A stretch of 64,000 bases of DNA from an uncultured Bacteroidales bacterium (GTDB lineage Bacteria > Bacteroidota > Bacteroidia > Bacteroidales > VadinHA17). Shown here piece by piece: positions 1 to 64,000 of the stretch (positions are counted from its first letter, which is position 1; each line of letters starts with the position of its first letter). Location of the stretch: NCBI GenBank assembly GCA_963732575.1, contig CAVTAA010000002.1:192509-256508 (forward strand). The letters run 5' to 3'. The notes beneath the pieces were generated by a model. The model was not told the DNA's origin. It ran no database searches and saw only the letters and a list, made by a program, of their open reading frames with translations. A program made the translations under genes and the position numbers.

Positions 1-5
1 AGGAA

Positions 6-679
6 ATGAAGCTTGATGAGGATATAAAATTTATCGATTTTCATTCGCACCGTGCAGAGGGGGAAGAACATACTCTTATTTAAAAAATCTTTTCGCGGGC
101 GAAAAAGTGCCTGTATTGTGCTCCCGGCATCTATTTATTCAGCAGGGATACACCCATGGCATCTCACAGAGGAAAATGCCTCTGAGCTGAAGGAGGCACT
201 GAAAAATACCCTCAGGACATCCCCGTGTTATTAGCAGTAGGTGAGGCTGGCTTTGATTCAATGAAAGGTCCGTCAAAAAATATTCAATACGATGCTTTTA
301 TTTACCAGGCACAGCTTGCTGAAGAGTTTAAAAAGCCTGTGGTGATCCATGCGGTGAGGTCATGGGATCTTCTCAGGAAGGCCAAGAAAGAGGTCAATCC
401 TTCGGTGAAATGGATTATTCACGGTTTCAGGGGAAAGGCACAGCTTGCATCTGACCTTGTCTCCGAAAACTTCATGATCTCTCTTGGTGTCGAAGGCATT
501 TCACCGGAGGTGGTCGAGGCTGCAGGAATGCAGAACATCCTTCTGGAAACCGACGATTCCGGCAGATCAATAAGTTCTGTTTACAGCCCACCTTGCCGAG
601 CATAACCGGGATCAGACAGGACGAATTGATTGACAGGCTGAGGGACAATTTTAATTCCTGCTTCGTTATTAAAGAGTAA
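6..679 (+). pseudogene. TatD-family metal-dependent hydrolase, frame broken at least 3 times (real pseudogene or assembly indels)
   Basis: ATG at 6 gives MKLDEDIKFIDFHSH (HxH site), then a stop. The gene continues in other frames as ORFs 52-234 (SAGIHPWH) and 225-605 (AVGEAGFD, VVIHAVRS, LLETDDSG). A last frame ends ELIDRLRDNFNSCFVIKE-TAA at 677-679. Confidence 0.7.
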
Positions 680-683
680 TGTG

Positions 684-60037: not shown

Positions 60038-62472
60038 TCAGATAATTACTTTGACAATATGTTCAGTTCCCTCCGGAAATACCGGAACGATGTTTGTCTC
60101 CAGCCTGTTTCCGTCAACAGTGATTTCCCATGCACCTTTTGTTCTGTGCACAGGGTTCAGAAACTCGATATGGTAGGTGGCTCCCCGGAACTTGCGTGTA
60201 ACAGTAAATCCGTTCCATTCGGGAGGTATGCAGGGTCGATCATCAGCCCGTCATAATCAGGGCGCACGCCCAGGATATATTGCGTGACTGTATACATGCA
60301 CCATGAGGCTGTACCGGTCAGCCAGCTGTTCTTGGCCTCACCGGGGGTGAAGGCGTCCTTGCCGGCTATCATCTGCGCATAGACGTACGGTTCTGTCTTG
60401 TGCAGTTCGCTTATCTCCTCAAGGTAAGACGGCGTTATACGGCTGTAATAGTCAAAGGCCTTCCGGCCGTTACCGGTGAGTGTCTCGGCTATGATGATCC
60501 ATGGGTTATTATGGCAGAAGACACCGGCATTCTCCTTGTAGCCCTCAGGGTAGCTTGAGATCTCTCCCAGGTTCAGGTAATACCTCGTAAATGCCGGGTT
60601 ATTGAGTACTATACCGTAGTCACAGGCCAGGTATTTGGTGACGGATGCAAGTGCGTCCAGAGCCTTGTCGTCATCGAGACCCATGCCGGCCATTATGCAC
60701 ATTCCCTGTGTCTCTATGAAGATCCTGCCTTCTTCGTTCTCCCGGCTGCCCACTTTCTTTCCGTAGTAGTCATAGGCACGCAGGAACCATTCGCCGTCCC
60801 ACCCGTGGGTTTTGATGGCCAGTTTCATATCATCGATATGCTTCTGTGCCTCCTCTGCCAGGGCTGTCTCTCCGCGCTTCTGTGCCATTTTCACGAAGTC
60901 GGCGCCGTACAGCACAAACATCGCTGCGATAAACACTGACTCTGCCACGCCCCCCTTCTGGTTCTCCGTTGTCTGGAAGCTCTCATCGGGGTTCGATGAG
61001 AAGCAGTTCAGGTTCAGGCAGTCGTTCCAGTCGGCCCGGCCTATCAGAGGCAGCCGGTGAGGCCCCAGGTGGTTGACTACGTGCCAGAATGAACGCTTAA
61101 GATGCTCGAAGAGGCTGGCGGCGTTTTCGGCGATTATTGTTAAAAGGAACATTTTCATCAAGCAGCGACCAGTCACCTGTCTCCTTGATATATGCTGCCA
61201 CACCGAAGATAAGCCATAAAGGGTCATCGTTGAAGTTGCCGCCGATCTCGGCATTGCCTCTCTTTGTCAGCGGCTGGTACTGGTGATAGGCGCTGCCGTC
61301 TTCGAGCTGGGTGGAGGCGATATCGATGATTCTTTCCTTTGACTGTCGGAGCTATCATATGCACATATCCCACAAGATCCTGGTTGCTGTCGCGGAAACC
61401 CATACCCCGTCCGATGCCGGATTCAAAGTAAGAAGCACTGCGTGACATGTTGTAAGTGACCATGCACTGGTACGGATTCCAGATGTTGACCATCCGCGAC
61501 AGGCGCGGGTCAGGATGATCAAGGGTTATCACAGAGAGCTGTTTCTCCCAGTAATCCTTTAGTTCTCCGAAAGCCTTTTCCACTTTGGCGTTGGTATCAT
61601 ACCGTGCGATCATCGCCTTTAGCCCTCTCCTTGTTTATCACTTTCGGGGCAATGAACTTTTCGTTTTCGGGATTCTCAACATAACCAAGAACGAAGACCA
61701 GGTTCTTTTCCTCACCGGGCTCCAGGTCCACCTCGATGCAATGTGATGCCACGGGAGACCACCCGTGGGCGACTGAGTTGCCGGGATTGCCCGAGAAGAC
61801 TTTGTCAGGGTGATCGAAGCCGTTATAAATACCGAGGAAAGCCTCCCTGTCTGTATCGAAACCGGCCACAGGGGTGTTGGCGGAATAAAAGGCATAATGG
61901 TTTCGCCGTTCACGGTATTCTGTTTTGTGATATATAACCCCGTCTTCAATCTCCACCTCACCGGTGGAGAAGTTGCGCTGGAAGTTTGTCATGTCATCAT
62001 GAGCATTCCAGAAGCACCACTCGACAAAGGAAAAGAGGCGGAAACGCTTTGGAAGTTTTCCGGTGTTGCGGAGTGAAACACGCTGCACCTCGCAGGTATC
62101 TCCTACAGGTACGAAGAACAGCATTTCAGCCCTGAGATTGTTTTTCTCCGAGCCTATGACCGTGTATCCCATGCCGTGACGGCACGAGTAGTTTTCCACA
62201 TCAGCCTTTACCGGCTTCCACCCCGGTGACCATACTGATCCGTTGTCGTTGATATAGAAGTATTTACCTCCGTCATCCAGCGGCACGTTATTGTACCTGT
62301 AGCGTGTCAGCCTGCGGAGACGGGCGTCCCTGAAGAAGCTGTAACCGCCTGCTGTATTGGAGATAATTGAGAAGAAATCCTTGTTGCCGAGATAATTGAT
62401 CCACGGGTAAGGTGTCTTGTACCGGGTGATGACATATTCTTTTTTCTCGTCATCAAAGTGGCCGAATTTCAT
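60038..62472 (-). pseudogene. GH94 glycoside phosphorylase (cellobiose / chitobiose phosphorylase family), at least 3 frame breaks
   Basis: Fragments 61597-62472 ([29 protein letters not shown]), 61224-61613 and 60157-61254 are colinear. A last frame reads [33 protein letters not shown]...HIVKVII-TGA at 60038-60040. Total is about 811 codons, as expected for GH94. Confidence 0.85.
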
Positions 62473-62502
62473 GATCAGGTCTCCTCTTATTAGTCTTTGA
62501 GT

Positions 62503-64000
62503 TTATTCCACCAGGTAAATTTCAGGATGATGCTGGTGAGTATCATTATCCCGGTTGCAGATATAGAATGGTTTCCATTCACGAATGATCAGAAACACGG
62601 GGAAGGCCATAAGCGATATCTGCCATACTATTCCGACAGCAACATTGAACATATCCCTCCAGAAATCCTTGTTCCCCTTGAATGACGGATCTTCAGCCAC
62701 CACCATTCTGTGCACCGGTTTCCAGAAGCCCCAGGGACGGACCTGCCTGTAGAATTTCTTCAGGGTCTCGTCACTTTCACGTTCCGAGAACAGAGATCCC
62801 AGAACGCTGCCTATCAGTGATATGAGGAAAATTACCGGGAACGCGTTCATGCTGAAGTTTTCCGTCAGCGGCCAGTTCTGAAGTATATCCAGGTTAAGGG
62901 CAGGCAGGACGAGGGCTGCAACTATACCCGACAGCATGCCCCAGAAGTAACCGTAACCGTTAAATCTCCACCAGTACCATTTCAGTACGTTGGGTGCGGT
63001 GTAACCTCCCCAGAGGGCTGCGGTGATCCAAAGCACGACATCATTTATGGATGTTACCAGGAAACCCACAATGATGCCAACAACCACTATCAGAAGCGAG
63101 GCCGCATAGCTCATCCTGACGTAGGTCTTTTCGCTGGCGTTGGGATTGACGTAACGCTTATAGATGTCATTGACGAGGTAAGCAGGGGCCGCGTTCACCG
63201 TGGCTGCAAAGTTGCTCATGAACGCTGCAATCAGGCCGGCCAGCAATAAACCCAGCAGGCCGACCGGGACATAAGTGGCGAGCACTTCGGGCAGTATGCT
63301 CTCGAAGTCCGGATCGGTCAGCGACCCGGTGTAGAGTGTGTCAAAATGCACAAGGGCAAGGATGGTGAGGCCGGCAACCATAAAATAACGTGCCGGGTTG
63401 AGCACCACGTTCACAAGTGAGCTCATCTTCGAGGCTTCCTTGGGATTTTTGGTGGCAAGGATGCGCTGCATGTCATAGTTTGGTGCAGGCCCTGCAGCAG
63501 CCACAAAAATGCCCTTGAAGAGCATCATGACAAAGAAGAGTCCGAAGAGCTCATAACCGTCACTCTTGATCCATTCGTTGAACATATGGAGCTTGGGTGA
63601 GGCGGCAGAGGAAATATTGTTCCAGTCGAGCCCCGTGGTATGTCCGAACCACAGGCTCTTCCATCCTTCGGGGATGACGGCGTTAAGAGCTTCCGGAGAG
63701 ATCTGCCTGATGGCGATGATGCCCACGGCTACTGAAGCGATGGTAAGTATGACATACTGTATTACCTCGGTGATCACCACGCTGAACATACCGCCCTTGA
63801 CCACATAAAAGGTGGTAATAGCCATCAGTATCAGGGCGTACAGGTTGACGTTTATCTGCGGATGCGCAATGATATACTCAGGATTGGAAACGATGGGAGG
63901 AAGGAACGCAGCCACGAACTTGCCGACACCCTTGAACCCGTACGAGAGAAATCCTATCACGCTGACTAGCGCGAAGACTACCACTATTATATGCGAGAGA
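62503..64000 (-). CDS. Sodium:solute symporter family transporter (5' end beyond the window)
   Basis: Polytopic membrane ORF, open to the window edge with no stop upstream of 63984. SSS-like segments: GGMFSVVITEVIQYV and AAGPAPNYDMQRILATKNPKEASK. Confidence 0.8.
   Translation of the reverse strand, partial: LSHIIVVVFALVSVIGFLSYGFKGVGKFVAAFLPPIVSNPEYIIAHPQINVNLYALILMAITTFYVVKGGMFSVVITEVIQYVILTIASVAVGIIAIRQISPEALNAVIPEGWKSLWFGHTTGLDWNNISSAASPKLHMFNEWIKSDGYELFGLFFVMMLFKGIFVAAAGPAPNYDMQRILATKNPKEASKMSSLVNVVLNPARYFMVAGLTILALVHFDTLYTGSLTDPDFESILPEVLATYVPVGLLGLLLAGLIAAFMSNFAATVNAAPAYLVNDIYKRYVNPNASEKTYVRMSYAASLLIVVVGIIVGFLVTSINDVVLWITAALWGGYTAPNVLKWYWWRFNGYGYFWGMLSGIVAALVLPALNLDILQNWPLTENFSMNAFPVIFLISLIGSVLGSLFSERESDETLKKFYRQVRPWGFWKPVHRMVVAEDPSFKGNKDFWRDMFNVAVGIVWQISLMAFPVFLIIREWKPFYICNRDNDTHQHHPEIYLVE

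Follow-up and report, generated by a model that had tools for sequence, protein, structure and literature searches.

The closest described counterparts of the DNA studied here are low-coverage assemblies and MAGs built from nanopore reads only, whose signature in the IDEEL test is the splitting of conserved genes by single-base indels (PMC9262707, PMC12313526). Such breaks are absent from the short-read assemblies of relatives and occur at other sites in long-read MAGs of the same genus, and the classical account attributes them to homopolymer indels. In reductive-decay genomes, such as those of Mycobacterium leprae and recent host-restricted symbionts, many adjacent genes are also interrupted and some essential genes remain intact, with nonsense codons, deletions, and IS insertions, relaxed constraint, and lesions shared across the lineage. 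Meanwhile, in programmed +1/−1 frameshifting or transcriptional slippage (prfB, dnaX, and IS3 transposases), one protein is encoded in two frames, and the sites are slippery or homopolymeric and conserved in orthologs. Here, we examined a stretch of 64,000 nt (“the window”), which seems to belong to a 1.10 Mb contig in the MAG of an uncultured Bacteroidales bacterium and in which many genes are split. The breaks are very probably consensus errors left when a metagenome was assembled from long reads only, most likely nanopore reads, rather than mutations of the organism. The window nevertheless differs from the known nanopore-only MAGs in that its lesions are mostly non-homopolymer +1 insertions and are sharply regional within one contig (~1–2 per kb versus 1 per 32 kb).

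Breaks were scored by frameshift-aware protein-to-DNA alignment against intact orthologs from sister Bacteroidales, together with DNA multiple alignments, and 44 frame-breaking indels were found across the window. Thirty of these fell in 12 genes at positions 1–24,145 (~1.2 per kb) and 13 in three genes at positions 56,453–62,559 (~2 per kb), whereas the 32.3 kb between them (24,146–56,452) contained a single break (binomial P = 1.7e−12, with boundaries set post hoc). The longest stretch without breaks was 21.3 kb, a length reached in none of 200,000 uniform simulations (simulated maximum, 19.1 kb), and the sparsest 32 kb contained one break versus a simulated minimum of eight. Two of the window’s own truncated products, P0001 (941 aa) and P0121 (249 aa), are also encoded on the 1,101,021-bp contig in NCBI/ENA. 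The broken genes are thus real in the deposited sequence and concentrated in two stretches, and chance does not explain their distribution. An earlier note, made from the sequence alone, had described strong clustering, with at least about 20 breaks in 12 genes within the first 24 kb and at least seven in two genes within 56.4–62.5 kb. The clustering proved stronger than it stated, and the right-hand breaks lie in three genes rather than two. Its reasoning that uniform error could not leave 32 kb clean agreed with our simulations, and the ortholog-guided recount of 24–56 kb, which might have revealed a similar break density there, yielded only the one break.

The left error-rich block (1–24,145) extends beyond the start of the window. 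On the plus strand, the TatD DNase gene (6–683) carries six indels (−1 at 81, −2 at 121, +1 at 137, 216, and 233, and +2 at 591) and is followed by an intact ThiF-family gene (684–1406). All the remaining broken genes of the block are on the minus strand. The beta-lactamase-fold serine hydrolase gene (1560–2919; 453 aa in homologs) has three indels (+1 at 2793, −1 at 2433, and +1 at 1652), and the CusB-like adaptor gene (3832–5103) has two (−1 at 5006 and +1 at 4831). Two ambiguous events were omitted from the count: an indel at 2947, upstream of the start of the 453-aa hydrolase, and an event near 3848 at the C-terminal end of the CusB-like adaptor, which varies between sisters and was left unscored. 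Four +1 insertions (6143, 5526, 5430, and 5275) interrupt the gene for an OEP/TolC-family outer membrane factor (5119–6514), and one, at 8814, interrupts the gene for a CusA/CzcA-type RND pump of 1290 aa (6558–10422); the latter site had been placed correctly near 8800 in the earlier note. A small Cys-rich gene with a DUF8199 domain (10949–11444) has a +1 insertion at 11340. The second TolC gene counted in the earlier note is in fact the C-terminal OEP domain of a naturally fused RND-OEP protein, 1463 aa in intact orthologs, so the CzcA-type RND pump and the TolC-like OEP domain constitute one gene (12622–17013) with three breaks, all +1 insertions (16578, 13760, and 13034). At higher coordinates are the dodecin gene (18149–18347), with a +1 insertion at 18213, which is 5 nt from the site that had been reported near 18208; the HflC (Band_7) gene (19580–20527), with −1 at 20352 and +1 at 20030; the peptidase M48 gene (21525–22994), with five insertions (+2 at 22745, and others at 22432, 22324, 22064, and 21946); and the DUF4382 gene (23141–23963), with a +1 insertion at 23596. 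The block ends inside a penicillin-binding protein (PBP) gene (24039–26151; 704 aa in sisters), previously taken to be intact, in which a +1 insertion at 24145 puts the last ~34 codons out of frame and the remainder is clean.

In the clean block (24,146–56,452; 32.3 kb), nearly the whole length is tiled by long ORFs that run without interruption and carry complete Pfam domains, and sister-guided alignment detected no frameshift in the PBP body, the rSAM gene, a TPR gene at 37.2–38.7 kb, a 209-aa gene, GT20, or GH15. The sole break is an additional G in ‘agaaGtcatt’ (~35131–35134) within a plus-strand gene for an ABCG-type ABC transporter with an ATPase and an ABC-2 membrane domain (33158–36242), in accordance with the one clear break reported near 35135. 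A further possible break had been proposed in a small ORF (32912–33295). This is doubtful; the ORF had no match in a Pfam search, lies opposite the 5′ end of the ABC gene, and is probably not a frame break.

In the right error-rich block (56,453–62,559), all genes are again on the minus strand, and glnS (57902–59674) and folB (59678–60034) are intact between broken genes, as the earlier note had observed. The DNRLRE-domain gene (56378–57829; 530 aa in the sister L005) contains eight indels, namely +1 at 57615, 57111, 57090, 57046, 57001, 56798, and 56533 and −1 at 56453, and the gene for a GH94 glycoside phosphorylase (60041–62538; 831 aa in the sister L020) contains four (+1 at 61620, 61349, and 61131 and −1 at 60236). 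The third broken gene encodes a sodium:solute symporter (SSF; 62493–63999), is cut by the window end, and has a +1 insertion at 62559, near the C-terminus.

The sparing of glnS and folB raises the question of whether the accessory genes around them (metal efflux, hydrolases, and glycan genes) have been pseudogenized very recently while selection maintained the essential genes and the TPR cluster. Across DNRLRE-glnS-folB-GH94, glnS and folB received none of the 12 events (P = 0.006 under uniformity), and many of the broken genes are plausibly dispensable. However, the non-essential RND pump genes likewise contain break-free gaps of 2.5–2.8 kb, and the left block contains eight intact genes, a number matching the 6.7 expected from random placement by gene length (P = 0.28). 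The lesions themselves are also of the wrong kind for decay: all 44 are indels of 1–2 nt (35 +1, two +2, six −1, and one −2), with no in-frame stop inside any aligned gene and no large deletion or IS insertion among them. Bacterial mutation is biased toward deletions, a direction to which the 37 insertions versus seven deletions (84% insertions) run counter. Furthermore, up to eight independent hits fall in a single gene of 1.45 kb whose sequence is otherwise conserved. When substitutions specific to the window were counted in the broken block, 30% of them were at codon positions 1 and 2 (26.9 substitutions per kb), compared with 32% in the Illumina-assembled JGI sister L003 (28.3 per kb) and 30–37% in the sisters overall. 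This similarity to L003 indicates that constraint is intact, with no sign of decay; nor was any excess of substitution errors detectable in the broken block. No lesion is shared between the window and its sisters, and comparable lesions are found in other long-read MAGs, where they occupy different sites, but are missing from short-read MAGs. Genuine decay, one of the alternatives listed in the earlier note, is therefore very improbable, and none of the hallmarks of real decay was seen in the window. The +1 insertions might instead be real products of a very recent, localized burst of single-base insertions in two chromosomal segments of one Bacteroidales lineage that spared the middle, with error-prone repair synthesis across tens of kilobases as one conceivable route. 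Such a burst would be too recent for relaxed selection to be visible, and we regard it as extremely improbable.

We then considered sequence context. The earlier note had placed its two resolved breaks in short homopolymer contexts and suggested long-read indel error or slippage, but the homopolymer or slippage context did not hold when the 31 +1 insertions with nucleotide-level placement were inspected: 23 of them create no homopolymer, six create a run of 2, and two a run of 3. None lies in a homopolymer run of ≥4, although the broken blocks hold 136 runs of ≥5, and insertions in homopolymers are, if anything, rarer than under random placement. Only two deletions, at 56453 and 60236, are in runs of 3–4. 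The error spectrum, insertion-biased and outside homopolymers, is thus unlike that of textbook nanopore data. If errors were systematic and depended on sequence context or on methylation motifs, the clusters would mirror the placement of those motifs or modifications. Weak biases in this direction exist, in that 22 of the 31 insertions added a G or C (P = 0.007) and 15 have T as the 5′ neighbor on the minus strand of the window (P = 0.005), both values being uncorrected for multiple testing. No motif common to the insertion contexts was seen by eye, however, and the favored contexts are short and are found throughout the window; hence, they cannot account for the clustering. The G+C contents of the broken and clean blocks overlap and their homopolymer densities are similar, and errors of this kind should recur at orthologous sites in the long-read sisters, which they do not. 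The context-dependent error mode envisaged in the earlier note is therefore in keeping with the small base biases but leaves the clustering unexplained, and as the cause of the pattern we consider it very unlikely.

Comparison with the sister genomes is consistent with consensus error. In DNA multiple alignments, no break was common to the window and any sister. The sisters of short-read style, L003 (JGI), L098 (whose k119_ contig names are those usual for MEGAHIT), and L007 (UBA4070), were intact. Of the four sisters whose contigs are named in the Flye style (‘contig_N’), three had breaks of their own at different sites, mostly +1 insertions: L004 had eight frameshifts (seven of them insertions), L001 had about four, and in L097 a beta-lactamase gene and an aminotransferase gene were each split; in L002, whose contig names are also of long-read style, there were no frame breaks. 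The breaks of L004, the only long-read-style sister with enough of them for a clustering test, were also clustered, with a gap of 14.2 kb (P = 0.003). The long-read indel error proposed in the earlier note thus agrees with the indel-only spectrum, with the intact short-read sisters, and with breaks elsewhere in the long-read sisters. The same alignments bear on two further readings: that the fragments joined here are distinct genes in nature, or that the cell reads through the breaks by programmed frameshifting or slippage. Each fragment set is colinear with one intact ortholog in two to four sisters, with 80–97% amino acid identity flanking every break, which rules out separate genes. The orthologs are unshifted at these positions, and the 44 sites of the window are unique to this assembly and have no slippery or homopolymeric sequence of the kind that marks programmed sites. 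We found no evidence favoring separate genes or programmed frameshifting, and this reading is scarcely conceivable.

The consensus errors that we favor still need a regional cause, such as uneven depth or polishing, because a uniform error rate cannot yield a clean 32 kb. A mosaic contig, with blocks from different lineages, is not supported: identity to the four sisters shows no step at 24.15 kb, and in the identity profile divergence already climbs from about 20 kb. Cross-mapping, in which the broken parts would represent the shared core and the clean part a strain-specific island, fits in part, since between its matching genes L020 lacks an equivalent of the window region at 26.2–40.3 kb, and L005 lacks one of the region at 45.4–56.1 kb. 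It is insufficient alone, however, because some of the shared genes are clean (PBP, GT20, and GH15; about 7 kb), whereas others, namely those for M48, HflC, and efflux, carry breaks. The closest relatives in genome collections are MFD*.bin MAGs, that is, Microflora Danica long-read MAGs. The MFD-LR data are nanopore-only Flye assemblies polished with one round of Medaka 1.8.0 and no short reads; the larger read sets were subject to a read-coverage cut-off of 8, and lower-coverage MAGs of the catalog are reported to show low coding density (PMC12313526); near-finished R10.4 assemblies took about 40-fold coverage (PMC9262707; Sereika et al. 2022). The sequencing technology and depth of the window’s own contig are inferred, and a nanopore-type origin is the most likely. 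The error-rich parts of the contig would then have a consensus of ~Q28, with roughly 1–2 spurious single-base insertions per kb, and the clean parts one of ~Q45, with one error in 32 kb. As the regional cause, our first choice would be an effective read depth that is systematically lower in the broken stretches; these stretches may alternatively have been missed or failed by polishing and left at draft-level consensus, or, as a third choice, their pileups may have contained reads of co-occurring strains. Simple Poisson fluctuation in depth would not easily give a bad stretch of 24 kb beside a clean one of 32 kb.

The biological significance of the pattern is small, being that of an artifact rather than a real feature, but the gene content, pseudogene counts, and operon structure of this contig are unreliable at face value, and some 15 genes that are annotated in pieces are whole in the living organism. 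For the curation of long-read MAGs, it is relevant that the residual errors are mainly +1 insertions outside homopolymers and not homopolymer deletions, and that they are strongly regional within the contig, so that genome-wide averages of quality or coding density mask stretches of ~Q28. Short-read polishing or reference-guided frameshift correction offers a route to their repair. Separately, Rfam and tRNA scans of the window returned only a tRNA-Glu (3172–3244) and a tRNA-Gln (56189–56262).

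On the six-frame ORF map, the minus-strand ORFs at 1–24 kb and 56–62.5 kb were short and overlapping, and the ORFs of the region between were long and unbroken. Intact sister proteins were run against the window with a custom banded protein-to-DNA aligner allowing frameshifts, and the events were cross-checked in DNA multiple alignments; at least two references concurred on nearly every event. The sister Bacteroidales loci were L001–L004 (syntenic DNA for 2.8–27.3 kb, 85–88% nucleotide identity), L097 and L098 (1–3.2 kb), and L005–L008 and L017–L020 (37–45 kb and 56–64 kb). L003 comes from a JGI metagenome, contig names of L098 follow the MEGAHIT style, and L007 corresponds to UBA4070; L001, L002, L004, and L097 carry Flye-style “contig_N” names of the ERZ2503xxxx series, and technology was judged from these names. 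The homologue-guided recount gave 30 frame-breaking indels in 12 genes of the left block (1–24,145), 13 in three genes of the right block (56,453–62,559), and one in the clean block, in the ABC gene at ~35,131, which reads ...aag aga gaa G tca ttc ctt aac ctg... across two frames. Sister-guided alignment showed no frameshift in ThiF, Haem_bd, the 118-aa HMA-like gene, HlyD, the 142-aa gene, BON-LysM, MscL, HflK, rSAM, the PBP body, one TPR gene, the 209-aa gene, GT20, GH15, glnS, or folB; the other genes at 24–56 kb, which lack a close sister, were single long ORFs with Pfam domains complete to their ends.

The breaks are present in the deposited assembly, because two deposited proteins match the window's truncated products. 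P0001 (941 aa) was 100% identical to the 994-aa RND fragment query (13752–16733), and the hydrolase fragment search returned the window's own P0121 (249 aa), both on the same 1,101,021-bp NCBI/ENA contig. The only homologue of this beta-lactamase-fold hydrolase found on the L003 contig (JGI Ga0393271_0000006) was P0174, a 210-aa “hypothetical protein” corresponding to 65% of the query; the copy in that lineage may be truly shortened. The RND search also yielded more than 100 orthologues of ~1463 aa (83–97% identity) in Bacteroidales MAGs. What had been read as an RND pump plus a second TolC (12622–17013, minus strand) is a single 1463-aa gene in relatives (10001–14392 in L002). Its product is an in-frame fusion of a full CusA/CzcA part (residues 1–1043) with a TolC-like OEP domain (1076–1429), and its length recurs in more than 100 protein clusters. 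At the junction lies MSAKKIGVIALFLGLTSALG, which is hydrophobic and resembles a signal peptide; the product may join an inner-membrane pump to an outer-membrane channel in one polypeptide, or may instead be cleaved or translated from an internal start.

The strong clustering of frame breaks proposed in the earlier note was confirmed and sharpened. With 30 and 13 events in the broken blocks, 24,146–56,452 held one event against 22 expected of 44 (P = 1.7e-12); the observed gap of 21.3 kb was reached in 0 of 200,000 uniform simulations, and simulated 32 kb windows never contained fewer than 8 events. Events were over-dispersed within the broken blocks too (variance-to-mean ratio, 1.6–1.8), with sub-clusters in TatD, OEP, M48, and the DNRLRE-domain gene.

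Genuine decay of accessory genes was not supported as the cause. Window-specific substitutions in the broken block (26.9 per kb, 30% at codon positions 1+2) were indistinguishable from the same measure in the JGI sister L003 (28.3 per kb, 32%), indicating that the broken genes have evolved under normal purifying selection and that the block holds no excess substitution error. Eight genes of the left block were intact, against 6.7 expected by random placement on length (P = 0.28). In the right block, glnS and folB had 0 of 12 events (nominal P = 0.006), yet event-free gaps of 2.5–2.8 kb also occurred inside the RND pumps. Under the same scoring, the long-read-style L004 had 8 frameshifts, 7 of them insertions and most outside homopolymers, in two clusters 14.2 kb apart (P = 0.003); L001 had ~4, and L097 had split genes. 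Frameshifts were essentially absent from L002 and from the sisters of JGI or short-read style, the single +1 called at the OEP start of L002 being read as a start-site difference. Together, the substitutions, intact-gene count, and sister frameshift pattern point to consensus error typical of long-read assembly, as the first reading had proposed. The clustered breaks, as an assembly artefact, are of practical rather than biological interest.

The homopolymer context suggested at the same time did not hold up. The indels were +1 (n = 35), +2 (n = 2), −1 (n = 6), and −2 (n = 1); no nonsense codon was found in the genes aligned to sister proteins, and no break was common to the window and any sister in the alignments. 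Of the +1 insertions, 31 could be placed at single-base resolution: 23 were unlike both neighbours, 6 lay in runs of 2, 2 in runs of 3, and none in runs of 4 or more, though the broken blocks contain 136 runs of 5 or more, at a density similar to that of the clean block. The +1 sites (137–24145 and 56533–61620) showed no shared motif but were modestly enriched for G or C as the inserted base (22/31) and for T as its 5' neighbour on the minus strand of the window (15/31). This weak bias, tied to one physical strand regardless of gene orientation, may be the signature of a basecaller or consensus tool. Deletions outnumbered insertions only in the MscL–HflC intergenic stretch, where four window-only 1-nt deletions lay at 19216–19457 within 600 nt well conserved among sisters (88–90% identity); the stretch includes a hairpin-like tgaaagc...gctttca and had no Rfam match.

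A chimeric join is not indicated, because the identity profile to sisters crosses the boundary at 24.15 kb without a step. A good part of the clean block is accessory, with 26.2–40.3 kb lacking a counterpart in L020 and 45.4–56.1 kb in L005, the latter ending beside tRNA-Gln (56,189–56,262) near the right-hand block boundary; PBP, GT20, and GH15 are shared with sisters yet clean. Regional errors could arise from lower effective depth, stretches never brought beyond draft quality, or reads of other strains in the pileups. The nearest genome-collection relatives are MAGs named MFD*.bin (Microflora Danica). That long-read catalogue used nanopore reads, Flye, and one round of Medaka 1.8.0, with a read-coverage cut-off of 8 for larger read sets, and low coding density is reported for its lower-coverage MAGs (PMC12313526); the same group found R10.4 assemblies near-finished only from ~40-fold coverage (PMC9262707). 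Separately, PBP (24136–26190) had 63 window-specific substitutions per kb, against 27 per kb over genes at 3.3–24 kb, with the four sisters close to one another. The window lineage falls as an outgroup at 20–26 kb but not in the metal-efflux cluster (90–95% identity), which hints that the efflux genes were recombined or transferred among these species.

The earlier “TIR-TPR” label for four minus-strand genes of the clean block (28045–30519, 36265–38667, 45476–47899, and 47903–50359) has weak support. Pfam found TPR repeats but no TIR domain in the four, one of which had a weak FlgO match, and NCBIfam gave one weak match to the TIR-like FxsC N-terminus (47903–50359; E = 0.004). The N-terminal DIFISYRxxD motif resembles, by eye, a TIR strand motif. 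For the gene at 36265–38667, NCBIfam's TIGR04510, “putative peptide modification system cyclase”, matched strongly (E = 4e-67), though below threshold. Two TPR paralogues lie in a low-GC region (45400–56140; 0.36–0.43) with a serpin, an LVIVD-repeat gene, beta-barrel OMP genes, and an ECF sigma factor; in L005, GH15 instead adjoins the DNRLRE-domain gene. The tRNA region (56118–56143 and 56218–56237) recurs imperfectly at 50571–50596 and 50690–50709, which suggests an att-like repeat on either side of a 5.5 kb sub-island. At 45400–45472, directly after the GH15 stop, the opening 73 nt of the TPR paralogues occur a third time, with 89% and 70% identity to the two other copies; the minus strand of this third copy encodes MDSLIPGYGCDIFISYRQKDNKGD with no gene body behind, and the copy appears to be a genuine remnant of a truncated gene at the island junction.
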